DNA from: Nitrosopumilus sp. | GTDB lineage: Archaea > Thermoproteota > Nitrososphaeria > Nitrososphaerales > Nitrosopumilaceae | DNA length: 64,000 bases | Reading direction: 5' to 3' | Assembly (NCBI GenBank): GCA_965219345.1 | Contig: OZ244732.1 | Span: forward strand, 960,001 to 1,024,000 | In this document: positions 3,002-52,313 of the stretch, piece after piece | Layout of the letters: every line of letters starts with the position of its first letter | Position numbering within the stretch: the stretch's first letter is position 1 | Made by a program: the position numbers and the translations under genes | Notes under the pieces: model-generated | The model's input: the letters and a program-made list of their open reading frames with translations, nothing else | The model's database searches: none | What the model was told of the DNA's origin: nothing

Positions 3002-4075
3002 ATGCAAGCAAAACTTATGAAAAACAATCTGAAATCTTTAGAGATCTCCTCAGCAGAGTGGTATTCTCTAAATCAGTTTCTATATCAGATAAAACAGATT
3101 GACTCTCCATGTGTGTCGGTATACTATCCATATGGTAAGGGGAAAGAGACCATCTCTTTACTCCAAGAGACAAACAGGAAAGAGTCATTTGAAAGAATTG
3201 AATCAGCAATTGAGAAAAGAATCATACATCTTAGGAAGAATCCTTCGTCAGTAGGCAAGTTTGCAAAGACTCTATGTATTTTTGGATGGATAAAGAATGG
3301 CAAAGTACACACCAAAGAAATTGGAACCTCCAAGAGACTTCCCTACATCTACATGGCAAGCAAAAAACCATACATCAAACCATTCCGTGATATTCTCAAA
3401 ACCAATCATGATGTTTTACTAGTAACTCTTGATCAAAAATCTGCAAGAATACAGAAATTTCACGGGAGTCAGATAATTCAAGAAGCTAAACTTGGAATTG
3501 ATCTCCGAAGTAGACATAGAAAAGGAGGACAGAGTCAGGGAAGATTTCTAAGGGCAAGACAAACAAAGATTCATGTCTTCTTTAAGAAAGTTGCAACCAA
3601 AGTCAGAAACATGGATTCTAATTCTGAGTTGATACTGTTAGGTGGAATAGGTCCTGCAAAGACAGAATTTTACGGAGAACTAGACTCGGAACTGGTAAAA
3701 AAATGTCGATTTGTACAAGACTTGTCTTTCTCTACTCCTATTCATGATATTCACAAGAAGATAATTCATCACTTGTACCAGTATAGAAGACGATATGTCG
3801 CACAAATAATTGAAAAATACGAGAAACTATTCAAAGATGGACTAACTGCGAAAAGAAATGATGTTATCTACAAGGCATTAGAGATTGGAGCCGTAGATAC
3901 GCTTATTGTTTCTGTAGACTATCACACCAACTCCCAATTCAAAAGTATAATGAAGATGCTAGAGATTGCTAGAAATAATTCCACTAGAATAGAGTTTGCA
4001 GTATCTCCAAAAATTATTGAAAAACTAGATCTTCATAATTCTGTTCTAGCTATACTTCGATACAGAATAAAATAA
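3002..4075 (+). CDS. aRF1/eRF1 paralogue (archaeo-eukaryotic release-factor superfamily)
   Basis: HRKGGQSQGRF catalytic loop, CVSVY N-terminal strand, ALEIGAVDTLIV domain 3; no NIKS motif. Confidence 0.8.
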   Translation: MQAKLMKNNLKSLEISSAEWYSLNQFLYQIKQIDSPCVSVYYPYGKGKETISLLQETNRKESFERIESAIEKRIIHLRKNPSSVGKFAKTLCIFGWIKNGKVHTKEIGTSKRLPYIYMASKKPYIKPFRDILKTNHDVLLVTLDQKSARIQKFHGSQIIQEAKLGIDLRSRHRKGGQSQGRFLRARQTKIHVFFKKVATKVRNMDSNSELILLGGIGPAKTEFYGELDSELVKKCRFVQDLSFSTPIHDIHKKIIHHLYQYRRRYVAQIIEKYEKLFKDGLTAKRNDVIYKALEIGAVDTLIVSVDYHTNSQFKSIMKMLEIARNNSTRIEFAVSPKIIEKLDLHNSVLAILRYRIK

Positions 4076-4715: not shown

Positions 4716-5046
4716 TATTTTGCGATTCGTTTAATGTCTAATAAAAATAATGTCAGTTAATCTTTAAATTCATCAATTCTAAGAGTATTTTTTCATGATC
4801 AACTTCTAGTTCTGTACTAAGCAAGACAAAAGACCCGTCTCTTAACTCTCTAGTTATTCGTTTTACCTTTTCATATATTGTAACTGAATATATTGATCTG
4901 CCTATTGATGAGAAAAGGAGTTCTTTTCACTTTGTAATAGGCGCTGCCTTAATACTACCTAAACTTCAATCAAACCCACAAATTAGGAACAAATTAATTC
5001 TATACTATTTATTGCCCATATTTCTTGGATTAGTGATTCTATTTGG

Positions 5047-5253
5047 TTGATTCACCAATTTTTAATATTGGGAAGTGCTACCAAAAACATGGCTGACACA
5101 TCTAAAAAAAAACAGGATGTGTTAGAAGAAAAACGTGTTCTAGATCTGTATAATTGTAAAGATATTCCACTACAATACGAAATTAAACCTAGAGGTACTA
5201 TCGAATTCGTCGAATCTGATGAAATAAAAAAAGAAGATTTTTTAGATGATTAG
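5047..5253 (+). CDS. hypothetical small protein (probable start ATG 5089)
   Basis: ORF track; MADTSKKKQ... start follows an AT-rich promoter-like stretch. Confidence 0.45.
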   Translation: MIHQFLILGSATKNMADTSKKKQDVLEEKRVLDLYNCKDIPLQYEIKPRGTIEFVESDEIKKEDFLDD

Positions 5254-5300
5254 TAAATATTTATTAAAATTGACAATTATTATAAATTTACAAGCAGTAA

Positions 5301-5573
5301 TCAAAAAAATTTGGTAAAACCGCCAGTTATTATGATGGTGAGATTTGCAAATTTGATTTGAACATTCTTAGCTGTGTCATTTCCTATATTAAACAAGTTA
5401 AAATTAATTGTTGCATCATTGTCATCATGATAAATAATTCCCGTATCTTTAGTTAAAATGATCTTTTCTAATGAAGATACTAATTTTGGTCCTCCTTCTG
5501 CAGCATATATGGGATTTGACAAGGTGATTGATACTAGTAATAATAAGATTATTGATACGACCATTCTTTTCAA
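5301..5573 (-). pseudogene. truncated secreted protein (signal peptide + partial Ig/CARDB-like strand)
   Basis: Signal peptide then FNLFNIGNDTAKNV; ends abruptly. Confidence 0.45.
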
Positions 5574-5583
5574 TTTTTTTCAC

Positions 5584-6648
5584 TTATTTTGGTATATTAA
5601 ATAATGACCATATCACACGATGATCAGATATTGCCCATTTTGTATATGCTCTAAATTGTGATTTTCTTTTAGTATTGTATAATTTCTGAAAACATACAGT
5701 ATCAAAAGCAAAAATTTGTGCTTTGTGTTCCTTTGTTACTTTAATTTTCTTAGAAAATGGTTCTGAGACAACAAGTTGATCATAATATGCATTATTATTG
5801 ATGTTAGAACCCTTTTTGATTTGTTTGTCTTTGAGTTTGTTTGAATCATCATTAATTGTAGAATCTGATTTAATTACACTTCCTTTTCCAATATGCTCAT
5901 GGTAGCGTAGTGGAGCTAGATGTTTTCTCTTTAGTCTTTTGTATACTGCATCTGTTTTTTCCATTCTTGGTACATTAAAATCTCCTAAAAGTAAAATATT
6001 ATGAGAAAATAATTCATTCTTATCTTTTTTTAATAATTTTTCAATCCAACTTGTAAGTGAATATATTTCTAATACTCTTTGTTGAAATTGACGTGTCTTT
6101 TCACTCTTTTTTCCATAATAGATATGTGAATTATATGTAGTAAAAGTTGTTGAATTAAATTTCCAAGATGCCAAGTATGACGGTCTATCATACCCTCTGA
6201 ATTTTACTGATTTTCCATTAAACTTTAATGATTTTCTTTGAGATGGTGGAATTGTTAATTCTCCAATATGATTTAACAATTCTAATCGTTTGGGTTTGTA
6301 GATGTATGTCATCCGTTCCTTGTTTCCTCCCGTATCGCTGAATAAGCATACATGAGTTCTTTTTAATATATTCATGATTTTGTTCAAACCAGTCATATTA
6401 GCATTAACTTCTTGTATGGCGATTAGATCAAATGGTTTTATGATTTCTGCAATCAAATTATAACAAGAATTTGTTCTTTCTTGGACATCAAAATTTGCTA
6501 TATTCCAACTTCCTATCAACAATTGATTTTTCTTTGGTTTTGAAATTCCTTCAGGGATTGCCTTGCGTTGTAATTTACGAATGGCTTTGATCTCTACTTT
6601 TTTATTAAAATTATATGTAAATGTTTTAGGTCTACAAAAAGGAGGCAC
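5584..6648 (-). CDS. endonuclease/exonuclease/phosphatase (DNase I-like EEP) family protein
   Basis: SWNIANF, DLIAIQEV, NSHIYYG, LLGDFN, YYDQL and ISDHRVI motifs. Confidence 0.9.
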   Translation of the reverse strand: MPPFCRPKTFTYNFNKKVEIKAIRKLQRKAIPEGISKPKKNQLLIGSWNIANFDVQERTNSCYNLIAEIIKPFDLIAIQEVNANMTGLNKIMNILKRTHVCLFSDTGGNKERMTYIYKPKRLELLNHIGELTIPPSQRKSLKFNGKSVKFRGYDRPSYLASWKFNSTTFTTYNSHIYYGKKSEKTRQFQQRVLEIYSLTSWIEKLLKKDKNELFSHNILLLGDFNVPRMEKTDAVYKRLKRKHLAPLRYHEHIGKGSVIKSDSTINDDSNKLKDKQIKKGSNINNNAYYDQLVVSEPFSKKIKVTKEHKAQIFAFDTVCFQKLYNTKRKSQFRAYTKWAISDHRVIWSLFNIPK

Positions 6649-6844
6649 ATTATAGTTAATTTTGTACTAGTACTAAACTCTTCAGGTATTACTTACTTGA
6701 AGTATTATTTCATGAAATTACTTTATCGTTTATTAAAACAGAAGATTCACTCTTTGAATTTATTTGATCGATGTTAATCCATTTTGGTGGAAATGGATGG
6801 ATTGAATAAAGTTCTTTTAATTGTTTAACATCCTGTAAGAACCA

Positions 6845-7252
6845 TGCTTGGAAAAAACAATACAAAGCCAAGAATTTACTGCACAAGGAAACAGAACACC
6901 ATAGACACATTCACCTTTCAGGGGATATGAACAACAACCAGATGGAATCCTTTAACGGAAACACACTAAGAATGAGAGAGAAAATTGTTAGGGGAATAAA
7001 GAAAGACGATTCTGCAATACTCAAGTTTTTCAGGATCTATGTAGATTGGATTCCAGTCCTAGGGGAATAAAGAAAGACGATTCTGCAATACTCAAGGGTA
7101 TGCAGCTTCACCACAACTACATTAGACCACACTAAGGATTGGATGGTGATACACCCACTGACGGGGCAGGAATCAGGGTTATGGGTGATAATAAATGGAA
7201 GACGATAATTCAGAATGCGGTAAAATCTGATCTACCGAGCTGTCCCAAGTAG
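6845..7252 (+). pseudogene. IS6-family DDE transposase 3' remnant
   Basis: AWKKQYKAKNLLHKETEHHRHIHLSGDMNNNQMESFNG...HHNYIRPH*GLDGDTP...NKWKTIIQNA; homologous to the C-terminus of 47953-49095; internal stop and a 71-bp insertion/duplication. Confidence 0.85.
6989..7096. repeat. 37-bp exact direct repeat flanking a 34-bp unique insert
   Basis: TAGGGGAATAAAGAAAGACGATTCTGCAATACTCAAG at 6989-7025 and 7060-7096; insert at 7026-7059. Confidence 0.95.
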
Positions 7253-7474
7253 AATTATCTACCACTGATGTACCAGTTCAGGTTTTTGTGATATAACTGG
7301 GTTTTGAACATAATAGTTACTAAGATATAATTTGAGAGACTATAAAAGATGATTTAATGTGAATGTGTTGTTCATACTCCTGAAAATCTACCTAAATATT
7401 TTTTCAGATCCTATCTTATGTCTTCATAAAACATCAAATAAGATAAATCATATTTAGTATCGGTTTTATTTTGT

Positions 7475-8263
7475 TTATGAATCCAGTAATTCGGATTTTT
7501 TCTTTTCAAAGTCTGTTTCGGTGATAACATCCATTATCATCATATCATACCATTCCCTGATTTGGATTCGTTTATCTTCATCACTCATCTGGGTTGATTT
7601 TAGATTGTCTGCAGTCTGTTTGATTTTTTTAGTAGCATCCATACTTTTCATTTTGATTTTTTCAGTAGAGATTTTCTCACTTGTTTTTTTACCAATATCT
7701 ATCACACTTGAAGCAGTTTTGTTAGAATATTGTTTTAATTTATCAGTAATGTTTCGTTGTGGTAGTATGGCTTTTTTCCATTCTCTTTTTGATTTGTAAC
7801 CACAGGCCTTTAGATTGTATTGTGTCGTCCACTTGAACATAAAATAAACTACAATAAAGATAGAGCCAAGAAAGATAACTGTATGATACAAAACAATTAA
7901 CGAAAATGAAATTAAAAATATAAAATCATCCAAATTTCCACTGTGAGGAAAGTAATCATAAATCAACTCACTAAGAAAAATCTCTAGATGATAGTGGGGT
8001 TCAATGTAAAGTGAATACCCAATACTTTCAGTTATGGTCATATCTTGATCAATTTCAAGAGGATATAAAATATAATCAAGAATAAACCAGACAGTTAGAA
8101 AAACTACAAATAATGGTATCCATTTTCTTGTCTTATGCATTTTGCTTGTCCAAAGTAGTGCAAATATTGAACATGAGAAAAAACAAGCCCAAAACCTAGA
8201 TAGTGGTTGTTGTGGTTTGGCTTGATCTTCTGTGATTTTTGGATCAGCCATATATTTGAGCAA
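7475..8263 (-). CDS. membrane protein with C-terminal SHOCT-like domain
   Basis: About three TM segments; C-terminus IREWYDMMIMDVITETDFEKKKSELL. Confidence 0.7.
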   Translation of the reverse strand: MLKYMADPKITEDQAKPQQPLSRFWACFFSCSIFALLWTSKMHKTRKWIPLFVVFLTVWFILDYILYPLEIDQDMTITESIGYSLYIEPHYHLEIFLSELIYDYFPHSGNLDDFIFLISFSLIVLYHTVIFLGSIFIVVYFMFKWTTQYNLKACGYKSKREWKKAILPQRNITDKLKQYSNKTASSVIDIGKKTSEKISTEKIKMKSMDATKKIKQTADNLKSTQMSDEDKRIQIREWYDMMIMDVITETDFEKKKSELLDS

Positions 8264-8415
8264 AAATTAGAGAATAAAAACAATACTACACTTAAATTAT
8301 TTTTATTCCTGTTAAAAAATAGGAAAATTGAGGGTTAATTGTATCTATGACAACCCTAATACGACTTGCGATCTAATATCTAATCGATTTTTGATCGTCA
8401 TGTTTTTAATTAATA

Positions 8416-9480
8416 GAGATTATGCGTAATCGATCATAATATCCGCACAATACGTGGTTTTACGATACACACGCACGTCAGCGGCAGAACGGCTTGCAGC
8501 CAGATAATCCGCACAACACATGAACAAAAACGCCAGAATCCAAAATGCAATGCGCAGCCCTGCAGCACCGCCACGTGCTCCGAAATCACATCGTCAATCC
8601 GGTGGCACTTGCTGCCACCCGCGGCGCTAACCAAGAAATCTTCTGCGTAGCTTGGGACTTCCCCTGTGAAGCGTCTTCATCAGGTGCAGGTTTACCAGGC
8701 CCGCAACGACATTCATCTCGCAGTTGAGCTCGTCCTCGGTGCCGCCGTACGGCTCTGTCATCCTGGCATACTGCTTTATCCTGCCTATGCTGTTCTCCAC
8801 TGTCACCTTGATGCCGCCTACCTTCTTGTTGCGCTTCTTTTGCTCATCTGTCAGATTTCGGGCCTCCCCCTCCTTTCCCTTTCTTCTTCTTGGTCTTTTG
8901 TACGGCATGATTACGTTTGCGCCCAGAAGATCCTTTTGCATTCCCTGATACCCAAGATCCATGTATGCGGTAAACCTCTCGCTTTTTGGATTGGACCCGT
9001 CGTGCATTTTTTCAGCCCACCTGCCAAACGGAATCGGATCTTCCCTGAGCAGTGTTATGTCATGGGTCTTTCCAACGACGGTGCTGCCGATTCCCAGGAT
9101 GATGTTGTTTGTAGCGGACACTGGTTGTGTTGAACGTATGCCTCTTTTTCTTGCCTGAATACATCTCCTTTCTTCTGTCCTTCTTGCCGGAACGGCGCAC
9201 GGGTATGTGGGTGCCGTCGACCAGCAGCGTTCCTGCGCCCCTGCATTCACTGGGATGTTGATGCCATGTCTGGTCTTCCACAGGCCGCGCTCAAGATCCA
9301 GCTCCTCGTTTTTCTGCTCCAGCTCCTTGCCTTTCTGCCCCAGGGTCTTCTTTAGTTTTTTGATCTCCTGTTGCAGCCTGCGTATGGTTTGATCAGATGA
9401 ATCTGGCATTTGATGTGTGGCATGATCGTGTCTGATCTAAACTTATCGGCGTGGGGTTTGGAGGGATTACGCATAATCTC
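8416..9480 (-). mobile_element. IS5-like (DDE_Tnp_4-type) insertion sequence, degenerate
   Basis: Perfect 16-bp TIR GAGATTATGCGTAATC / GATTACGCATAATCTC flanked by TA on both sides; GC-rich relative to host. Confidence 0.85.
8627..9409 (-). pseudogene. IS5-like transposase, frameshifted
   Basis: The LLVDGTHIPV..YSGKKKRHTFN motif lies in another frame (9060-9281) than YMDLGYQG and VENSIGRIK. Confidence 0.8.
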
Positions 9481-9549
9481 TATTATTGGAGAATATATAA
9501 AATCACATAATAAGAGAGTAGAATCCAAAGAAATAAGTCCGAATTCTGT

Positions 9550-9611
9550 ATCAAATTATAACAAGAATTTGTTCTTTCTTGGACATCAAAATTTGCTATA
9601 TTCCAACTTCC
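9550..9611. repeat. 62-bp exact copy of 6452-6513 (5' part of the EEP gene)
   Basis: ATCAAATTATAACAAGAATTTGTTCTTTCTTGGACATCAAAATTTGCTATATTCCAACTTCC is present at both sites in the same orientation. Confidence 0.95.
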
Positions 9612-9887
9612 CAGATATTATGTAATTTCTGATTTAGAATCAGGTGATGCTGCTGATATATCACTACAGGTATCTGCTGCTCTAATTGATGACTTGTATA
9701 GAGGACCAGCAACACAAACAATTACATCAATTGTTGAATGTAATAGTTAATCTTTTTTTCTTTTTATTAATTTAAATTAAACATGAAACAATATTTTAGA
9801 TTGTATTGTTTTATTTAATATCAGAAATACTACTCTATCAAAATAAAAAACTAATAACTTTATAATTTGGATAAAATAATAAAACCT

Positions 9888-9976
9888 GTTGGCGTCGCCA
9901 AGCATGGTATGGCGTGAGTCTGATAAACTCAAATCTGATACCTTCGGATTCGCCGGTTCAAATCCGGCCGCCAACG
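9888..9976 (+). tRNA. class II tRNA with Ser-type body and GAT (Ile) anticodon
   Basis: Acceptor GTTGGCG/CGCCAAC, D-arm GCC-AAGCATGGTAT-GGC, anticodon stem TGAGT/ACTCA with loop CT-GAT-AA (9922-9924), 7-bp variable arm AATCTGA/TCGGATT, T-arm GCCGG-TTCAAAT-CCGGC, discriminator G; TTTATAA box ~25 nt upstream. Confidence 0.9.
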
Positions 9977-10030
9977 GGTTTATGCTAAATGTAATATTCA
10001 CTATTATAAAAGATCATAGTATCAATTAAT

Positions 10031-11221
10031 TGTGGGATCCTGAAAGTAGTATACCCCCTATCTGACATCGTATTCCTCTCCCGTTTGTTCGTCAATAACT
10101 GTTTGTCCTGGGGATGGCATCTTTCTGGTGAATGCCCGCGCCGGTGTCTCTAGGTTGTCCAGATCAAGTGACATGTGTGGCCGGTCGTGGTTGAACCATT
10201 CCACAAACCGCTCCACGGGATCCGTCTTTGGTTTCGTGTTGAACGGTCCGCCCACACGGTCCGTCTCGGATCCTGCTGAACGCACCGTTCTGTAGGCCGA
10301 CTCCTCCTCGAAGAGGTGCAGTTTGCGCTGGAGTTCACCGTGAACCCTCTCGAGCTTGCCGTTTGTCTGCGGGTGTCTTACACGCGCCAGGATCTGCCTG
10401 ATGCCCAGCGACACCAGCTCCAGCTCAAATTCGGAGGCGCCTTTCTTCTTGTACTGCCCCTCGTTGGCGTAGAACTGGCTGCCGCGGTCAGTCAGAATGG
10501 ACGCGGGTTTGCCGTGCGCCTCCATTGCTGCCCTGAGAACCTCGATTGCGTGCCTGGAGGTGGCCTGATCAAAGACGCCGTATCCGACAATAAACCTGGA
10601 GGCGTCATCCAGATAGGCGATAAACCACCTTCCGTCATCCAGCTGCTTGTAGTCTGTGTGCCACATCGAGTTGGAGTAGGTGCGCTCAAAGCGGATCCAT
10701 TTGCGCCTCTTGCTCTTCTTGGGCTGCCTTGCCGACAGGTTGTTGTCCCTCATTATGCCGTGTACGGCATTGTGAGGGATATGTATTCCCTCTTCCTCCT
10801 CGATCAGTCGCTCCGTGCGGACGGCCCCCTGGCGGTGCCTGCAGTGTGCAGAGAGGACCGCAGTGTTCCCTGCGACCCGGAAGACCATTCTCGGGCCTGC
10901 CCATGCTAGCCGGGTAGACTATCCTGTCAGGTTCCACACCCTTGTACCTGGCCCACAGTTTCTTTACCCAGATCTCGGAGATGCCCATGGTATCTGCAAT
11001 CTGCCTGTTGGTCGTTTTGCCGGCCTTCTTCTGCAGGATTATCCACTTTACCTTTGACTCGTCAAGTTTTCTCATGACCCTGATGCGGCGCCTTCCGATA
11101 TGTCTCCACCTCTGTGTGCGCTTTAGGAACCCACGTACCATCATCTCAATTCTGCGTCTTGCTTCAGTCAGTATGCGTCCCTCCTATTTTGAGGGGGGTA
11201 TACTACTTTCTGGACTATACA
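10031..11221 (-). mobile_element. IS481-family insertion sequence (1,191 bp)
   Basis: TGT...ACA ends, 28-bp imperfect TIR (17-bp core GAAAGTAGTATACCCCC), 15-bp TSD ATAGTATCAATTAAT at 10016-10030 and 11222-11236. Confidence 0.93.
10058..11144 (-). pseudogene. IS481 transposase (rve/DDE), frameshifted near 10862
   Basis: The HTH N-terminus is in ORF 10686-11144; WHTDYK, LDDASR, LTDRGSQF and PQTNGKLER are in ORF 10058-10888. Confidence 0.85.
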
Positions 11222-11248
11222 ATAGTATCAATTAATGATTTAACCATA

Positions 11249-11549
11249 ATGAATATATTAATTCGTAAAGCAACACAAAAAGACATACAGACTATATTGG
11301 AACTATTATACGAGTTAGGATGTCCAATGCAAAACTCATTAATGTGAATCTCACTGATGCAAATCTCCATAATGCAAATCTTACTAATACAGATCTAACC
11401 AATACAAAATTCCATAAGCAAACCTCTCTTATGCAGACCTTAGTGGTGCAAACCTCTATAGATCAAACCTCTCTTATGCAAACCTCATGGGTGCAAAACT
11501 CACTGGTGCAGGCCTTAAGGATACAGCATTAAATAAGAAATTTTACTAA
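11249..11549 (+). pseudogene. chimeric remnant: GNAT N-terminus fused to pentapeptide-repeat fragment
   Basis: MNILIRKATQKDIQTILELLYELG, then (frameshifted) ANLHNANLTNTDLT and ANLSYADLSGANLY pentapeptides. Confidence 0.7.
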
Positions 11550-11634
11550 TTCGACAAAACTTCATTGGTCATTTAAATTACAAAGAAAATTTCAAAATAG
11601 TTTCTTTAAATAACAAAATCGATGTCCATTATTA

Positions 11635-12291
11635 TTGGGTCTAAGAGAAATTGAACTTCAAGAAGAATATCGTTCAGATAGAAATGATATTGCATCGGAA
11701 TTTTTCTTTCCTTGCCTAAGTAATTGTATCGAGTATGATAGATGTGTTGACTTTTTGTCGATTCAGACGTTAGCCACAATCTCTATGGCATTTGATAATT
11801 TTGTTGCGGGTAAAGCAAAATTAAGAATTGTTACAGGCCACAGATTTAGAGCAGCAGATCTTGATCTATTTACAAAACTCTTTGATGCGAAATACACGAA
11901 ATCGTTTGAAGGAAAACAAATCAAAAACACCAAAATTGAAAAAATTGCAAGATTTTTTGACAATGGCCAAATTGAATTAAAGATTGCAATCCCAAACTCA
12001 GAAGAAGTTGCAGATTCATTCTCAGAGAGAATTGGGATATTTAGAGATGAGCATGATCAGATTGTTGCATTTACTGGTACCTCTAGTGAATCATTCTCTA
12101 CTCAGACAATAGATTTTGAATCCGTAGATGTGTTTACGTCATGGAATGACAAATCACGGGTTGAAAGAAAGATGAAAGATTTTGAGGATCTGTGGGAGAA
12201 CAAGACGAAATATGTGCAAGTTTATGATTTTATGTATGCAATAAAAAACAATCTTTTAAGATATTCATCTGAATGGGTATTACAAGATTAA
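11635..12291 (+). CDS. stand-alone PLD-like domain resembling the N-terminus of restriction/SF2 helicases
   Basis: EEYRSD..FFFPCL..YDR, RIGIFRD..IVAFTGTS, FESVDVFTSW; the HxK motif is degenerate. Confidence 0.65.
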   Translation: MGLREIELQEEYRSDRNDIASEFFFPCLSNCIEYDRCVDFLSIQTLATISMAFDNFVAGKAKLRIVTGHRFRAADLDLFTKLFDAKYTKSFEGKQIKNTKIEKIARFFDNGQIELKIAIPNSEEVADSFSERIGIFRDEHDQIVAFTGTSSESFSTQTIDFESVDVFTSWNDKSRVERKMKDFEDLWENKTKYVQVYDFMYAIKNNLLRYSSEWVLQD

Positions 12292-12851
12292 AGCTGAAAT
12301 GACTCTTCTAATCTAGCTTTGTTTTCATAGAAATTCATTCTATTGATTTTATAGTAGATAACTTCACCACGACGTTCAATGACTGCAATAATTGGTTCTT
12401 TTCCCATCTGAGTGATCTCTTCAATCTTTTTCTGTAGATTGCCCATCTTTTCTTGTTGGCCCTCATTAAGGCCGAAGATTAGAAATTTTGCACCCTTTTC
12501 GCCAAAGTGTCCTCTTTCATAAACTCTAAAGTCCGAACCAAACCCAAAACCGTCCTTTACAACATAACCGCGATTTCGAAGATCTCGGTATATCAAAAAT
12601 TTGGTTAGAATTTCAGGATTTATTTTTTGACAAAGACTCATGAAAGAGTTAAAATCAATCTGTTTTTTTCCTTTCTTTAGGGTTAGTCTTTTAGCGTATA
12701 ACAGGTAAAGAGTTTCAAATTGTTTTAGGAGTAATTTTCCTTTTTCAATTTCCCCATATCCCTTTTGCTCAAGTTCATGAATCATATTCTTATCAGAGAT
12801 GTAAGTCTGACTTGAAATCATCTCACCCTTGACCAAAGGAGTTTCTTCCAT
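12288..12851 (-). CDS. endA: tRNA-splicing endonuclease
   Basis: IYRDLRNRGYVVKDGFGFGSDFRVY motif. Confidence 0.9.
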   Translation of the reverse strand: MEETPLVKGEMISSQTYISDKNMIHELEQKGYGEIEKGKLLLKQFETLYLLYAKRLTLKKGKKQIDFNSFMSLCQKINPEILTKFLIYRDLRNRGYVVKDGFGFGSDFRVYERGHFGEKGAKFLIFGLNEGQQEKMGNLQKKIEEITQMGKEPIIAVIERRGEVIYYKINRMNFYENKARLEESFQL

Positions 12852-12950
12852 GATGAAGAGAAAGCCAAAGGATTTCCATATAAGCATTGGATAACATGAA
12901 TAAATGCTGGGTTAACCGTTAAAATATGGGCATTCTTGTTTTAGGATGTC

Positions 12951-13460
12951 ATGCATGGTGCAAATTATAGAAGAGGAGTTGGGCAAGCTTTTACTAGAAA
13001 GGAGTACATCAAAGGTAAACCACAGATAAAAATTGCAAAATTTCAAGGTGGTAAAAGAGGAACATACCAATATCGTGTTCAATTAAGTCTAAACGAAAAG
13101 ATTCAGATCAGACATATGGCAATCGAGTCAACCAGATTAGCAGCAAACAAGACATTGGAGAAAACAACTGGAGAAACAGGTTATTATTCCAGACTAAGAA
13201 TTTATCCACATATTCTTCTAAGAGAAAACAAACAGATTGCAACTGCAGGTGCAGACAGAATTTCAGAAGGAATGAGAAGATCATGGGGTAAAGCCACAAG
13301 TTTAGGTGCTAGAGTCAAACAAGGTCAATGTATAATGGAGTTATACGTAAATGGTAATGATCATTTAGAGGCAGCAAAGAAAGCTCTCAAAGGCGCATGT
13401 GTAAAATTACCTGGCACACCAACAATCTCAATGCTTGAATGGAACAAACCATCACCATAA
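12951..13460 (+). CDS. rpl10e: 50S ribosomal protein uL16 (L10e)
   Basis: YPHILLRENK..AGADRISEGMRRSWGK. Confidence 0.95.
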   Translation: MHGANYRRGVGQAFTRKEYIKGKPQIKIAKFQGGKRGTYQYRVQLSLNEKIQIRHMAIESTRLAANKTLEKTTGETGYYSRLRIYPHILLRENKQIATAGADRISEGMRRSWGKATSLGARVKQGQCIMELYVNGNDHLEAAKKALKGACVKLPGTPTISMLEWNKPSP

Positions 13461-13715
13461 ATTTTCTAAATTAGATTTCTTGGTTTTGATAAATTCTAAA
13501 AACTCTTCAAATTCTTCTTTAGTTGGCTCTCGATTAAGAATTCTTTTGGATTGATAGTAAAAGGAGTTGTAAATTCTACCCACTACAATACCTAAAGCAA
13601 ATGATTTTGAACCGTCAATGTTTGATAGAAATTGAATTAATTGTTTGATTTCATCCTTATTCGAAACTGTATCTTGAATTTTTTCCTCCATCTTCTTTAG
13701 AAGAATTTTATCCAT
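13452..13715 (-). CDS. conserved thaumarchaeal hypothetical protein
   Basis: GRIYNSFYYQSKRILNREPT motif; clean ORF. Confidence 0.75.
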   Translation of the reverse strand: MDKILLKKMEEKIQDTVSNKDEIKQLIQFLSNIDGSKSFALGIVVGRIYNSFYYQSKRILNREPTKEEFEEFLEFIKTKKSNLENLW

Positions 13716-13778
13716 ATTGTATCTTAATTGAAATAGTTAAAAACAGTTTAATATCCAAATTTAGCCTCTAGGATTGTT

Positions 13779-13855
13779 GCAGTTATAGTACAGTTTGGTT
13801 AATATTCTAGCTTGCCAAGTTAGTGACCCGGGTTCAAATCCCGGTAACTGCACCA
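13779..13855 (+). tRNA. tRNA-Gly(GCC) with encoded CCA
   Basis: GCAGTTA/TAACTGC acceptor, CTAGC-TTGCCAA-GTTAG anticodon arm, CCGGG-TTCAAAT-CCCGG T-arm, ACCA end. Confidence 0.95.
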
Positions 13856-14286
13856 TCTATCTTTGATTTCTTTGCTAGCCCATTATGAATAATTTCCAGT
13901 GCATCATGAGCTTTTTCTGGACGAGGCAATTGAATCATAAACACATTGTCCTTTCCGTAATGAGAATGTGGAGAAGAGAGAGCAAGCATGGATGTTTTTG
14001 CAAGAGATTCAAAAAATGAAAGATCAGATTTTGCGTTAACTAGAAATTTTTCAACAATATTTCCTCTTGAAAATGTTAAAACAACTTCAACAAAAACATT
14101 TCCTTGCCCATCGTGGAGAATTTTTAGATCAGTATTAATCGATAAAGGTTGTCCAGCAACTTTTGAGAGCATATCATCGTATTTTTCTTCTTCAATTACA
14201 ATACATGGGGTGTTCTTACCATCAAAATCAAAAGTGGTAATTCCATCATGGACTTGGTCTAACAGTCTCTTTAATTCATCAGACAT
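13834..14286 (-). CDS. hypothetical protein
   Basis: 150-aa ORF coupled to the antiporter; 3' end overlaps tRNA-Gly. Confidence 0.75.
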   Translation of the reverse strand: MSDELKRLLDQVHDGITTFDFDGKNTPCIVIEEEKYDDMLSKVAGQPLSINTDLKILHDGQGNVFVEVVLTFSRGNIVEKFLVNAKSDLSFFESLAKTSMLALSSPHSHYGKDNVFMIQLPRPEKAHDALEIIHNGLAKKSKIDGAVTGI

Positions 14287-15625
14287 TTTCTTTCTTTTCT
14301 ACTACAGGTATTATTCTATCACCAGCTTTCATCAAAAAGGGAGTAAGAATTGCGGTAATTATGGAAATCATACCTATCAAAGGGAATAAGAAAGCACTAA
14401 CTGCACCCATATCTACTCCAACCTTTACAATTACAATCGAGAATTCGCCTCTTGGAGCTGCTAAGGAAAATGCAGAACGGAGTGCTTTGCCACGTTTTTG
14501 TCTAAATATGATATTCCCAATCATATTACCTCCAAACTTCATGCCAGTGGCAACTGCAATCAAAACAATGGCTATAACAATATAATTTTCAAGCTGGGAA
14601 GCATCCATCAGTGCACCAACTGAGATAAAGAATATGGCTACAAACATGTCTTTTATTGGACTTGAAAGAAGTTTTGAAACTTCGGCTGATCTGGATTCGG
14701 CAACAAGTACACCTGCTAAAAATGCTCCAATTGCTACAGATAATCCCACAATGTTTGCAAATAAGGCATATCCAAAACAGAGACCAAGAACACTGAGCAG
14801 TAAAATTTCACGATGTTCTGTAGCTGCAACTCTATCGATTAGTGGAGGAATTACACGGGTTCCAACAGTAAACGTTCCAACAATAAGAGCAATTGCAACT
14901 GTCACTACTGCAATAATGGATTCTATAGATACAGTTCCAACTAAAGCAATAGATTGCAATGAAGAAATTAGAATAACCGCAATCACATCTTCAACAATTA
15001 AAATACCTAGGACAAGTAAAGAGGACTCTTTTTTGATTTGCCCCGTATCCTCAAAAATTTTAACAATAATTGCAGTACTTGATATTGATAGTGCCGCTGA
15101 AATAAATAATGCATCCATAAATTGAAGCCCAAGCACACTAGCAACGTAAAATATGACGCCCATTGTTGAAAACAACCCTACAGTCCCAATTCCAACTGCT
15201 TTACGACCAATGCTTTTGATTTTTGAATATGGGAATTCAATACCTATTACAAAAAGAAGCAAGATGACACCAATTTCAGCAAAAAGATTCAATGCCTCAG
15301 TATCAGATAAAATTCCTACAGCTCCTAAAACTTCAGAATTAGGGCCGCCTTCGGGTAAAAGCCACGACCAAAATGGTGACAGAGGACCAAGCAACATTCC
15401 TGCAAAAAGATAGCCAATGATCAAAGGTTGTTTTATTTTAAAAAATGCAAGTGTAACTACAGCACCAATAATCATGATAAAAGCTAAATCAGTAACAAAA
15501 CTCGTGTGAGGAAGTTCAGGAGTAATCTGTTCAATTAAACTGGTGACAGTGTTATTTAGAGTGCTTTGAATCCCACTTGAATCTAGTTGAAGTGGAATAT
15601 TTTGCATAATATTATTTTTAAGCAA
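14279..15625 (-). CDS. CPA2 cation:proton antiporter (KefB-like)
   Basis: AEIGVILLLFVIGIE, SISSTAII, GILIVED, GAFLAG and PRGEFS motifs; multiple TMs. Confidence 0.9.
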   Translation of the reverse strand: MLKNNIMQNIPLQLDSSGIQSTLNNTVTSLIEQITPELPHTSFVTDLAFIMIIGAVVTLAFFKIKQPLIIGYLFAGMLLGPLSPFWSWLLPEGGPNSEVLGAVGILSDTEALNLFAEIGVILLLFVIGIEFPYSKIKSIGRKAVGIGTVGLFSTMGVIFYVASVLGLQFMDALFISAALSISSTAIIVKIFEDTGQIKKESSLLVLGILIVEDVIAVILISSLQSIALVGTVSIESIIAVVTVAIALIVGTFTVGTRVIPPLIDRVAATEHREILLLSVLGLCFGYALFANIVGLSVAIGAFLAGVLVAESRSAEVSKLLSSPIKDMFVAIFFISVGALMDASQLENYIVIAIVLIAVATGMKFGGNMIGNIIFRQKRGKALRSAFSLAAPRGEFSIVIVKVGVDMGAVSAFLFPLIGMISIITAILTPFLMKAGDRIIPVVEKKENV

Positions 15626-15850
15626 ATTTGTTTAAAAATGATTATTCGCTTAAAATTTAGAAATTAAATGATAGAATATTAAATAATTGAAGACAGGCTC
15701 AATATTATGATCATCATGTTTAATCCCTTTATTCCAAGTTAATCATAATCCAAATGCAGAGTGATGATTAGGTCATCTGAATAAAATGTAGAGATATGAC
15801 CTGGGGTATCTGACTGCATAATTGGTTACGTTGTAATTACCCAATTATTA

Positions 15851-15875
15851 ATAGTACGGTATCATACCGTACTAT
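15851..15875. promoter_or_regulatory. perfect 25-bp palindrome (putative operator) between TATA-like box and ATG
   Basis: ATAGTACGGTAT-C-ATACCGTACTAT immediately before ATG 15876. Confidence 0.7.
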
Positions 15876-15983
15876 ATGATTCAATGCGAATTTTGCACGA
15901 GAGGATTTATTGAAACAGCAAATGGTTTGGCTGAAAAGACCTTTCATGAACTACTTCATGAACCACAAGTTGTAAACAAGTAA
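15876..15983 (+). CDS. C2H2 zinc-finger microprotein (35 aa)
   Basis: MIQCEFCTRGFIETANGLAEKTFHELLHEPQVVNK*; CxxC...HxxxH; T-rich tract downstream. Confidence 0.65.
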   Translation: MIQCEFCTRGFIETANGLAEKTFHELLHEPQVVNK

Positions 15984-16044
15984 CTCTTTACATTTTTTAT
16001 TTTAGAGCTAACTTTTTTATCATTAAATTTTTAATTTAATTCAT

Positions 16045-47952: not shown

Positions 47953-49095
47953 TTATTGATATTGACTAAGTGAGGCGTTTTGAATGATGGTCTTCCACTT
48001 GTTATTTCCATCAACTAGAATACCAGCTAATTCGGCTGGAGTCTTCTTGCCAATTCCACCATGCTTCTTTGAGAAATTGTAAAATGTCTGAAATCCGTCA
48101 AAGAGAGGACTGTCCATCTTTTTTATTCCCCTGTATGATACTTCCCTGTCTCTGATTGTACCGTTCAATCGCTCCATTCTGTTGTTGTTTTTGTCGCCTT
48201 TCATGTGGATATGGCGTATATGTTTCGTGTCTTTACATAGGAAATTCTTGGCCTTGTAGTTATTTTTCCATGCCTCATGGAAATTATGAGCTCCATCAGA
48301 GATTAGGGTTTTTGGTATCTTGTCTGCAATCATCATGGCTTCCCTGAACATTGGGTTTACATTTTCAGTACCTTTTGTATTTGCCACATATTGGGTAATC
48401 ATAAATCTGGTCTCATGGTCTAACATGGAATACTGGAGTTTCATATTGCCTTTTATCTTCATAAAAATCTCATCTGTTCTCCAAGTTTCAGATACCCTTG
48501 GAACTATGCCCTTTACGTAATCTGCAACCATCTTAGAGTATTTTTCAATCCATCTGTATACTGTCATGTGAGATACCTTGATGTCCTCCTGTTCAAAAGC
48601 ATCTGCAATATCCCTGACACTCATTCCTGCAAAGTACGATTGTAAGGCACGTGTAATTAGTACGTCCTTTGATCTCATTTTCTCAAAACCTAAATTTAGT
48701 GTGAATATCTTCTTACAATCCTTGCATTTGTATTGCTGGGTATTGCCTTTCCTGTTTTTTCTGATTCCCTTTTTGGTTAACCTGCCTGATGAACAGAACT
48801 TGCATAATGGGAGTTTTGACTGATCCATCATTCTAAATTCCTGTCTGGTATTACTTTGATTCTTTTTGATTAGTTCCAGTACAATCTTGATGTGCTTGCA
48901 GTCTGATTTTCTTTTGATGTGGTCTGGACAATCGCAAATTAACCCACCATCTGTCCTTGATATGATATAGTGAATCTGTGGTATGCTTTGTGATCTTACG
49001 CTGAATTTTTCAGGACTGAACTGTTTTACACAGTTTGGTTTTTCCATCATTTGTCTGGCTCTCTGGGTTCTTGGGTTCATACAATAAGGTATCAT
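47953..49095 (-). CDS. IS6-family DDE transposase with N-terminal SWIM and zinc-ribbon domains
   Basis: CDCPD..CKH, CKFC..YKCKDC, HTH, WRTDE, LISDG, NNNRMERLNG; uninterrupted. Confidence 0.92.
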   Translation of the reverse strand: MIPYCMNPRTQRARQMMEKPNCVKQFSPEKFSVRSQSIPQIHYIISRTDGGLICDCPDHIKRKSDCKHIKIVLELIKKNQSNTRQEFRMMDQSKLPLCKFCSSGRLTKKGIRKNRKGNTQQYKCKDCKKIFTLNLGFEKMRSKDVLITRALQSYFAGMSVRDIADAFEQEDIKVSHMTVYRWIEKYSKMVADYVKGIVPRVSETWRTDEIFMKIKGNMKLQYSMLDHETRFMITQYVANTKGTENVNPMFREAMMIADKIPKTLISDGAHNFHEAWKNNYKAKNFLCKDTKHIRHIHMKGDKNNNRMERLNGTIRDREVSYRGIKKMDSPLFDGFQTFYNFSKKHGGIGKKTPAELAGILVDGNNKWKTIIQNASLSQYQ

Positions 49096-51435: not shown

Positions 51436-51529
51436 CTGTTGGCTGGTTTTATGGGGACATTTCCGACTACTGCATTCAATATAGGGTTAATAAATATGAA
51501 CCACTTTCCTTGATAAAGAGACTAATTAA

Positions 51530-52313
51530 TTCTCATCTTTGAGTGTCTTGACTGTAAAAAGAAATTCTCTACAAACTTTGGATTTGAAAATATGAGATAT
51601 GACTATACCGTCATAACAGGAGCTCTACAAATGTACTATTCAGGTATGAGTGTAAGAGACATTGAAAATCACTATGAAATGCTGGGAATTGAAGTAGACC
51701 ACAGTTCTATCATGATTGGATTTGTAAATATTCTATAATGGTTAGCAAGTATCCAAATGAGATAGTTCCTAGAACCAACGAAAGAGTAATGGTAAGAGCC
51801 GATGAGGTTTGGATTAAGGTAAATGGCAAACAGAATTATTTGTTTGCCTCAATGGAAGATGATAGTCGTCATTGGCTAGCTAGCGATATGGCAGATACAA
51901 AGTTTCAACACAATGCAGACAATCTATTAAAGCTCACAAAGGAAGCAATAGGCAGAAATCCAGTTTATTTTGTAACTGACGGATTACCAGCTTGTTGTAT
52001 GAAATCATCAAAGAAAGTGTTTGGAAAAAAGACACTTCATACTAGGCATATTCACATTCAAAAGGATATGAACAACAACAAAATGGAGAGGATGAACGGA
52101 GAAATCAGAGACAGAGAGAAAGTATTCAGAAGTCTTAAGAAGATTGATACACCTATCATTGATGGTATGAAAGCCTATTACAATTTCACAAAAAAACATG
52201 GTATATTGAAAGGAAAAACTCCAAGTGAGGAAGCCTTGATTAAAGTAGATGGGAAAAATAGATGGAAAGCTATCATTGAGAACGCTAGTCTTTACAGGGA
52301 GAATTCGGTCTGA
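51530..52313 (+). pseudogene. IS6-family transposase, frameshifted
   Basis: FECLDCKKKFSTNFGF and YYSGMSVRD lie upstream in another frame; ADEVWIK, VTDG and NNNKMERMNG in ORF 51738-52313. Confidence 0.85.

Follow-up and report, generated by a model that had tools for sequence, protein, structure and literature searches.

A class II tRNA with a predicted serine-type body and an isoleucine anticodon belongs to a mobile-DNA-associated family in Nitrosopumilus

The stretch of DNA analysed here (the window, 64,000 nucleotides (nt)) comes from Nitrosopumilus sp. (assembly GCA_965219345.1, contig OZ244732.1) and covers C1:960001-1024000 of the source genome, hereafter G000, which comprises 1.91 Mb in 2 contigs. 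An accessory class II transfer RNA (tRNA), with a long variable arm, the discriminator base G73 and the isoleucine anticodon GAU, lies on the plus strand at 9888-9976 of the window (C1 969888; tRNA positions 1-73) according to ARAGORN, Rfam and covariance models. ARAGORN predicted a tRNA-Ile(gat) at 9887-9977, the only other tRNA that it found in the window being a normal tRNA-Gly(GCC) at 13779, and the Rfam model RF00005 matched 9888-9976 with 56.1 bits (E 2.1e-9, model positions 1-71 of 71), treating 18 nt of the variable region as an insertion. A preliminary description had reported an intact cloverleaf with a 7-bp variable arm, one unpaired base before the T stem and G73, all of which were confirmed by direct reading, ARAGORN and Rfam. 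The 89-nt molecule has an acceptor stem of 7 bp (GTTGGCG/CGCCAAC), a D stem (GCCA/TGGC) of 4 bp once A13-U22 is counted rather than the 3 bp first described, an anticodon stem of 5 bp (TGAGT/ACTCA) with the loop CTGATAA, a variable region of 20 nt at 9933-9952 (7-bp stem AATCTGA/TCGGATT, 5-nt loop TACCT, one unpaired C; plus strand, read from the sequence and alignment A4), a T arm GCCGG-TTCAAAT-CCGGC and the discriminator G73 at 9976. All 21 stem pairs are standard, and the tertiary nucleotides are complete (U8, A14, G18G19, U33 and GTTCAAATC). Its folding exceeded that of shuffled sequences (z = -5.04, 0 of 200 shuffles as good), and the centroid fold is the cloverleaf. The window tRNA is a real, intact and well-formed gene.

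The anticodon occupies 9922-9924 on the plus strand, and its base 9924 (position 36) departs from the GAA usual in the family described below, as read from the sequence, alignments A1 and A4 and public contigs. A public contig of 475 letters spanning 9582-10056 contained 0 differing letters at a word depth of 70.7 in run X1 and 13.4 in run X4, two runs of one study that possibly represent the assembly's own samples, and such contigs drop rare variants. Contigs of runs X5 and X6 carry only the flanking insertion sequence (IS) and upstream parts and stop short of the tRNA. Upstream, the TATA box placed by the preliminary description about 25 nt before the gene was recovered as a TATA-like element, TTTATAA, at 9859-9865 (plus strand, -29 to -23 relative to the tRNA); the register of TTTATA at -29 is also the one in which 17 of 34 standard tRNAs in G000 carry TATA-like hexamers under a strict pattern, which is weak evidence because the DNA is AT-rich. 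The leader AAACCT (9882-9887) is complementary to G73 plus the trailer GGTTT (9976-9981), both on the plus strand and within the inverted repeat I8, so that the reported 6-bp extension of the acceptor helix held as complementarity and reached 92% over longer arms (9882-9894/9969-9981). This complementarity is retained in the homologue of the related genome G036, and in that of G009 with a change at -1.

Several other identities of the gene were rejected. A tRNA pseudogene was dismissed since no broken stem or lost conserved nucleotide was found and the family is 98.9% paired, with compensatory changes. The earlier idea that the variable arm is spliced out as a non-canonical intron also failed, since, of the 28 bulge-helix-bulge motifs that a loose definition yielded, 0 fell between the anticodon and T stems and none could excise the arm; an intron-containing class I tRNA was likewise excluded, for ARAGORN with introns allowed made no such call here and the shortest homologues keep 13-14 nt in this region. 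The hallmarks of tRNA-Sec are a UCA anticodon, a 9/4 fold and a long D stem, in contrast to the GAU anticodon, 7/5 fold and 4-bp D stem of the window tRNA. An antisense RNA masking the tRNA found no support: up to 400 nt away from 16 family members, the longest stretches exactly complementary to the tRNA were 0-10 nt and in inconsistent places, as expected by chance in AT-rich DNA, and a 7-nt complement of the anticodon loop at 9819-9825 was within chance.

Judged from its sequence, the body of the window tRNA is of the serine type, as first proposed, given that it is class II with G73, G30-C40 and a Ser-like D arm. Seven genomes contributed 13 genuine Ser tRNAs to a serine model (R2), and four genomes contributed 12 genuine Leu tRNAs to a leucine model (R3), with G73 in 13/13 of the former when aligned and A73 in 12/12 of the latter. 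The window tRNA reached 72.8 bits on the Ser model versus 56.0 on the Leu model, while a held-out Ser(GGA) gave 88.3 versus 50.7, and two held-out Leu tRNAs gave 64.1 versus 111.2 (L094) and 56.0 versus 107.4 (L101). Three other G000 tRNAs of the same kind followed the serine side, namely the second GAU copy (62.1 versus 46.7) and the CAG copies c1220106 (61.8 versus 57.3) and 1730533 (58.8 versus 54.5). In the part of PMC9976931 drawn on here, G73 and G30-C40 are strong identity elements for archaeal seryl-tRNA synthetase (SerRS), G73 is an antideterminant for archaeal leucyl-tRNA synthetase (LeuRS), and LeuRS does not read the anticodon. The window tRNA carries both G30-C40 and G73.

The standard tRNAs of G000 form the background of this comparison, ARAGORN with introns allowed having found 52 tRNAs in total. 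The genuine tRNA-Ile(GAU) at c871288 is class I, with A73, about 75 nt and a 5-nt variable region, in agreement with what had been stated of tRNA-Ile, and its CTGATAA loop, with A37 after U36, is the same as that of the window tRNA. A73 is also carried by the Phe and Leu tRNAs of the genome, including a genuine tRNA-Leu(CAG) at c491459. Four serine tRNAs are present: Ser(GCU) at C1 1091906-1091989, the decoder expected to exist elsewhere, Ser(UGA) at c315551, Ser(CGA) at c1745779 and the intron-containing Ser(GGA) at 183137. One SerRS-like gene (423-aa frame, 153.5 bits; its PF00587 match at C1 857672-858217) was recognized among 5 PF00587 hits, and no second SerRS copy was found among these hits, other synthetase classes not having been searched.

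Far from a lone oddity, the window tRNA turned out to be one member of a mobile-DNA-associated, genus-wide family. ARAGORN identified eight class II, G73 tRNAs with non-serine anticodons in G000 (hereafter extras, all on C1): the window tRNA and a GAU copy with a different body 18 kb from it (c951659-951747, minus strand); two UAU copies at 903934-904018 and 1038939-1039023 (plus), the second with T-stem mismatches; two CCU copies at 1235417-1235498 and 1718375-1718455 (plus); and two CAG copies at c1220106-1220191 (minus) and 1730533-1730618 (plus). A degenerate long UCU copy with a poor T stem lies at 334078-334162 (plus). In a covariance model built from the G000 extras and Ser tRNAs (R1), on which the window tRNA scored 88.4 bits, all four Ser tRNAs and all eight extras ranked above everything else in the genome. 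A survey of 71 genus genomes at least 90% complete with this model (E <= 1e-15) yielded exactly four hits in 45 genomes, which were the four Ser tRNAs wherever inspected, fewer than four in 8 and more than four in 18, comprising 11 hits each in G000 and G084, 8 in G093, 7 in G083, 6 in three genomes and 5 in eleven. Anticodons were read in 12 genomes, of which 11 were picked for carrying extras or homologues, with G018 as a blank, so that they are not a random sample. All 38 extras in these genomes carry G73 and none has a serine anticodon: GAA occurs 16 times, GAU 7, CAG 4, UAA 3, UAU and CCU 2 each, and UCU, CUU, AUC and UGU once each. The 32 of the 38 with A35 would read codons with a middle U.

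In G084 eight extras lie within 34 kb, and two GAU copies of G093 are 1.1 kb apart. The G084 island (L159/L160, G084:C2:186001-226000) extends over 40 kb at a GC content of about 0.50 versus about 0.33-0.36 for the genus, and all eight of its ARAGORN tRNAs are class II with G73, bearing the anticodons CAG (one), GAU (two) and GAA (five); the quality figure of G084 includes 11% contamination. Each of these tRNAs sits just beyond the 3' end of a minus-strand gene. Weak tRNA-like matches to the Ser model (27.7-35.7 bits) at L159 13269-13351, L160 9361-9445 and L161 7674-7756 and 9384-9466 follow intact extras downstream, at distances from a few hundred to about 1300 nt, and may be partial duplicates from recombination.

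The homologues of the window tRNA revealed a different origin of its anticodon from that first supposed. A DNA search of 61 related genomes recovered homologues over nearly the full length in G009 (two copies, 88-89%), G014 (80%), G036 (78%) and G015 (73%). Among these five copies, ARAGORN labelled four class II 'tRNA-Phe(gaa)' and made no call in the G015 fragment. Scanning 185,579 species genomes for an exact pattern returned 19 stretches, of which 8 are class II GAA tRNAs, one of them truncated, in records named Nitrosopumilus sp., Nitrosarchaeum sp. and Nitrososphaerota archaeon; the rest comprise 1 class II ACG tRNA (Nitrosopumilus sp.), 6 bacterial Leu/Ser tRNAs and 4 without a call. Among metagenome contigs the same scan gave 36 matches, namely 8 archaeal-type GAA tRNAs, 1 GAU tRNA (L178) and 27 tRNAs of other organisms with Leu, Ser or Cys anticodons, and the family pattern was found in 0 stretches of the viral contig collection. 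Because the nearest relatives carry GAA, the GAU of the window tRNA derives from GAA by a change at position 36 (9924) and not from GCU at position 35 (9923), which leaves the notion of a one-step mutant or miscall of Ser(GCU) without support. GAU is found in 1 of 13 aligned family members. The body of L178 equals the GAA copies L169 and L184, so that the A36U switch was independent there, and GAA/GAU switches on one body thus recur in the G000 window tRNA, in L178 versus L169/L184 and in the G084 array. This recurrence fits a scaffold that is charged regardless of its anticodon. Of the preliminary description as a whole, the observation itself, the serine-type body and the presence of Ser(GCU) elsewhere were upheld, and the Ser(GCU) origin of the gene was not.

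Comparison of 13 distinct family members (alignment A4, 273 pair cells) showed that the fold of the family is under selection. Standard pairs account for 98.9% of the cells, both-sided changes affect 16 of the 21 pairs in 48 cells, and the 7-bp acceptor and 5-bp T stem both covary. None of 500 shuffles reached any of five covariation measures, a control that overstates the effect because the sequences are related, whereas sliding the partners by 1-3 columns, which lowered pairing to 36-51%, and the count of doubly changed pairs are free of this bias. The anticodon loop follows the consensus C-U-G-A-N-A-A, with 3 columns invariant and 3 at least 90% conserved, and such covariation together with loop conservation argues that the members are not decaying pseudogenes. 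In the variable arm, the portion conserved across the family is the 3' strand CCTCGGAT. This strand is still kept in homologues without the 5' strand of the arm. The motif UCUGA is present twice in the window tRNA (9916-9952), in the anticodon stem-loop and in the 5' strand of the variable arm, so that the conserved 3' strand UCGGAUUC is able to pair with either copy; the minimum-energy fold takes the anticodon-side copy as its partner.

The window tRNA is enclosed by two IS copies. The upstream IS (8406-9486, minus strand) contains a DDE_Tnp_4 transposase open reading frame (ORF) at 8627-9409 (PF13359, E 5.5e-6) and has other copies in G000 at 87-95% identity. The downstream IS (10022-11225, minus strand, GC 0.56), with an rve-type transposase ORF at 10058-10888 (PF00665, E 9.3e-14), begins 46 nt after the tRNA and is repeated in G000 by five more copies at 99% identity and an 83-nt fragment. 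The flank between them (9977-10021, plus strand) is common to the G036 homologue in alignment A5, including ATAAAAGAT at about +30, and this homology ends at the IS start; in general only about 40-60 nt per side of the window copy are common to homologues. A genus-syntenic block starts further right (11541-16000, alignment of 30 relatives), most relatives aligning from 11541-11645 to 16000 and the others from further in, and 0 of the 30 align across 4720-11540 at that place, which makes the DNA left of the block, tRNA included, a G000-specific mosaic. The comparison of the syntenic locus proposed earlier yielded no tRNA upstream of the conserved block in G007, G036 or G009, and tblastn of 17 window ORFs against 15 homologue loci produced 0 matches. 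An eRF1/Pelota-like protein (3002-4075) and the tRNA-splicing endonuclease EndA (12288-12887) are encoded near the tRNA; EndA is part of the conserved syntenic block, and its proximity therefore looks coincidental.

The wider family is tied to strain-specific, IS-rich or restriction-modification-rich DNA. Neighbours of the extras include DNA methylases, HNH and GmrSD nucleases, a tyrosine integrase and a TrbL-like protein, and the genes of the G084 array comprise three N6_N4 methylases, MmeI-like and Eco57I-like enzymes, a HaeIII endonuclease, a T2SSE ATPase and a transposase. Both CAG copies of G000 are followed after 49 nt by an IS240/IS6-like DDE transposase (PF13610), and the order of tRNA, about 50 nt and transposase is kept in units that are 77% identical overall, with the tRNA itself identical at 85 of 86 positions. 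IS240-like transposase loci number 30 on G000:C1, including 6867-7219, 47962-49080 and 51529-52304 of the window, and 7 of them lie within 200 nt of a tRNA. All seven tRNAs are irregular, five of them belonging to the class II extras and the other two being 'tRNA-???' whose anticodon loops have 8 nt, whereas 0 of 41 standard tRNAs in G000 stand within that distance (<=200 nt) of such a locus. An IS240-like transposase also adjoins extras in 6 of 30 loci from relatives; the one nearest to the window tRNA is 2668 nt away. The two 'tRNA-???' (G000:C1 787949-788026 and 1438222-1438294) are of class I length with 8-nt loops (tcgt, tccg), lie 150 or 23 nt from an IS240-like transposase fragment and may be further irregular accessory tRNAs. 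A ATAAAAGAT-like motif occurs about 30 nt after most family members (A5), and in one subfamily (G068 L141, G090b L127) AGATCGC flanks the tRNA on both sides, at about 115 nt upstream and at about 130 nt downstream, a combination that hints at a small mobile unit about 300 nt long. At L031 (3354-3442) the 3' acceptor strand is replaced directly after the T loop, and at L096 (1501-1584) it mismatches the 5' strand, damage resembling that which recombination within the T arm might leave.

These features would be accommodated by a family of tRNAs with a canonical 7/5 cloverleaf and a serine-type body, whose anticodons are mostly GAA, then GAU, CAG and UAA and never serine, and in which the window copy would have arisen from the GAA lineage by an A36-to-U change that gave the loop CUGAUAA, identical to that of genuine tRNA-Ile. 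Such a tRNA would be transcribed from its own TATA-like promoter, processed and then charged by the single SerRS of G000, which does not read the anticodon, and would compete weakly with tRNA-Ile(GAU) at AUC and AUU, leading to the insertion of serine. A SerRS-chargeable scaffold would explain the restriction of diversification to one body type, the absence of serine anticodons and the recurrent GAA/GAU switches. For this entire chain, from a functional accessory tRNA with a serine body to serine charging and competition at AUC/AUU, the scales stand roughly level; we infer transcription, serylation, ribosome use and benefit of the window tRNA, and the anti-viral and proteome-diversifying roles suggested for it are speculation. 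Several points weigh against this chain. The minimum-energy fold (-37.8 kcal/mol) is not the cloverleaf, GAGUCUGA pairing with the 3' strand of the variable arm, and the 13-bp helix of leader and trailer might hinder end processing. On the Ser model, the window tRNA scored 15 bits under the held-out genuine Ser tRNA, and the family members L003 and L030 slightly favour the Leu model. G1-C72 and C2-G71 are invariant in the 13 genuine Ser tRNAs of the genus (A6: G1, C2, G82, C83), but the window tRNA combines G1-C72 with U2-A71 and the extras vary at pair 2-71, so that they may be poor SerRS substrates. Moreover, serine at Ile or Phe codons should be harmful, and heavy translational use is therefore hard to square with long retention.

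If the window tRNA were instead charged according to its anticodon by isoleucyl-tRNA synthetase (IleRS), it would be an extra tRNA-Ile serving the codon usage of GC-richer mobile genes, and the GAA, CAG and CCU copies would likewise supply Phe, Leu and Arg. The CUGAUAA loop with A37 does match that of the genuine tRNA-Ile of G000, IleRS, PheRS and ArgRS depend heavily on the anticodon, and the genes of the GC 0.50 island exceed host genes in their use of UUC (0.42 versus 0.26), AUC (0.39 versus 0.19), CUG (0.33 versus 0.10) and AGG (0.27 versus 0.15). This account appears unlikely, however, in view of G73 in 38/38 extras as opposed to A73 in the Ile, Phe and Leu tRNAs of G000, and it leaves the class II serine-type body of all extras found unexplained and gains no new decoding capacity from GAA and GAU. 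Since LeuRS ignores the anticodon and G73 blocks the archaeal enzyme, as stated in the portion of PMC9976931 used, cognate charging could not explain the CAG and UAA members. Somewhat more room, though still clearly the smaller share, is given to service of the RNA or gene to mobile DNA, as a transposase or integrase landing site, a promoter or processing signal, or a decoy for a tRNA-cutting enzyme. The fact that the tRNAs adjoining IS240-like loci are all irregular (7/30 loci in G000, against 0/41 standard tRNAs), their adjacency to extras in 6/30 loci of relatives, the fixed arrangement of the CAG units with a tRNA better conserved than its unit, the altered acceptor strands of L031 and L096 and the surrounding methylase and restriction genes all speak for it. 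A DNA target, by contrast, needs neither compensatory changes in four stems nor a conserved anticodon loop, the window tRNA does not adjoin an IS240-like gene, and the orientation and distance of the transposases vary (upstream, downstream, convergent); the RNA-level covariation in particular argues against such service as the sole role.

Decay and error bear on the window copy itself. It might be a GAA-family member that is neutral or was recently crippled, with a chance A36U change, silent or on its way out, in line with the rarity of GAU among the aligned members (1/13), the enclosure between two IS copies, one at 46 nt, and the decayed look of the long UCU copy and second UAU copy in G000. 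With all stems and conserved nucleotides intact, the A36U switch made independently on another body (L178) and GAU the second commonest anticodon of the wider family (7/38), this is rather improbable. That GAU differs by one letter from GCU had prompted the further proposal of an assembly or sequencing error at 9923 in a Ser(GCU) gene. A standard Ser(GCU) exists elsewhere in G000, the homologues carry GAA, and the public contigs at depths of 70.7 and 13.4 show no other letter, which refutes an error within the limit that contigs drop rare variants and reduces its likelihood to almost nothing.

Natural tRNAs with mismatched body and anticodon are rare and, in the sources drawn on, have been described in bacteria (allo-tRNAs) and eukaryotes (nev-tRNAs, human variants). 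Bacterial allo-tRNAs are defined by an 8/4 or 9/3 acceptor/T geometry in the part used of Mukai et al. (Nucleic Acids Res 2017, PMC5389517), and excerpts of this and a second source (PMC5389517; PMC7609411) describe serine identity features with non-serine anticodons, UAU being the commonest, proximity to transposon-related genes and toxin-antitoxin systems, and decay of some copies. On this partial view, the window tRNA shares with them the serine-type body, the non-serine anticodon, the mobile-gene neighbourhood and the principle that the body rather than the anticodon would set the amino acid. It is unlike them in its 7/5 geometry and archaeal host, and its family differs in having GAA and GAU as the commonest anticodons and IS elements and restriction-modification genes as neighbours. 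The literature searched (main texts) yielded no description of an archaeal family of such tRNAs; to judge by sequence, the window tRNA would be an archaeal variant of a known allo-tRNA-like kind, in a family new to print as far as found.

Nematode nev-tRNAs, within the portions consulted, are A73 in 115 of 115 cases and leucylated (PMC3333845), and are class II molecules whose anticodons, Ile(UAU) among them, specify neither Leu nor Ser (PMC3333845; PMC4300185). The present family resembles them, so far as those portions go, as a multi-copy, lineage-restricted set of class II tRNAs with mismatched anticodons, but all copies here carry G73 and the window tRNA scores better on the Ser than on the Leu model, while nev-tRNAs are eukaryotic nuclear genes without a tie to mobile DNA. 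The Candida tRNA-Ser(CAG) combines a serine-type body with a leucine anticodon and underlies a fixed codon reassignment. Similarly, a genuine A73 tRNA-Leu(CAG) coexists in G000 with two class II CAG copies bearing G73; unlike in Candida, the genuine cognate tRNAs have been kept, and the extras form an accessory set of sporadic occurrence (18/71 genomes). A human tRNA-Ser-AGA with G35A places Ser at Phe codons, according to the part of PMC12993449 used. As far as that part shows, this serine tRNA with a Phe-reading anticodon demonstrates that the mechanism works in cells, although the human variants are recent point changes in core genes and the family here is old and diverged with its fold kept. 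Phage and mobile-element tRNAs are accessory as well, and normally their body matches the anticodon. The extras are like them in lying on foreign DNA with anticodons matching the codons that foreign genes favour, and unlike them in the mismatch of body and anticodon and in the 0 family-pattern stretches among viral contigs.

The mismatch encountered here concerns an old family whose fold is maintained by selection, with repeated anticodon switching, distributed patchily with mobile DNA in globally important nitrifiers, of whose source organism cultured relatives exist. If serylated, the tRNA would offer a handle on the mistranslation tolerance of a streamlined archaeon, on mobile-element tRNAs as weapons versus codon supply and on how codon reassignments start, and the association with one transposase family forms a lead of its own. 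A bolder, speculative scenario, which we regard as unlikely, holds that mobile DNA in ammonia-oxidising archaea carries a diversifying arsenal of 'missense' tRNAs, in which a serine-charged scaffold with Phe, Ile and Leu anticodon switching would act as a conflict tool, IS240-like transposases homing to it or riding with it. If true, it would hit AT-rich, Phe/Ile-rich competitors (viruses, or the host as with an addiction module) more than the GC-richer element, would represent a class of RNA-based toxin or defence and would be a prokaryotic parallel to eukaryotic tRNA-targeted transposition.

A few minor observations concern other tRNAs. The second, small contig of G000 (C2, 41,585 bases, GC 0.359) was without an ARAGORN tRNA or IS240-like hit. 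No class I tRNA-Arg(CCU) was found in G000 by ARAGORN, Rfam or a stem-loop scan, and the Trp, Glu(UUC), Pro(CGG) and Leu(UAA) tRNAs were likewise missed by these scans, probably owing to non-canonical introns in these four. The sole CCU anticodon arms detected in the genome are those of the two class II G73 copies. On a metagenome contig of GC 0.24 (L166 470-518), the same pattern that matched the family picked up a class II tRNA of another organism with the Cys anticodon GCA.

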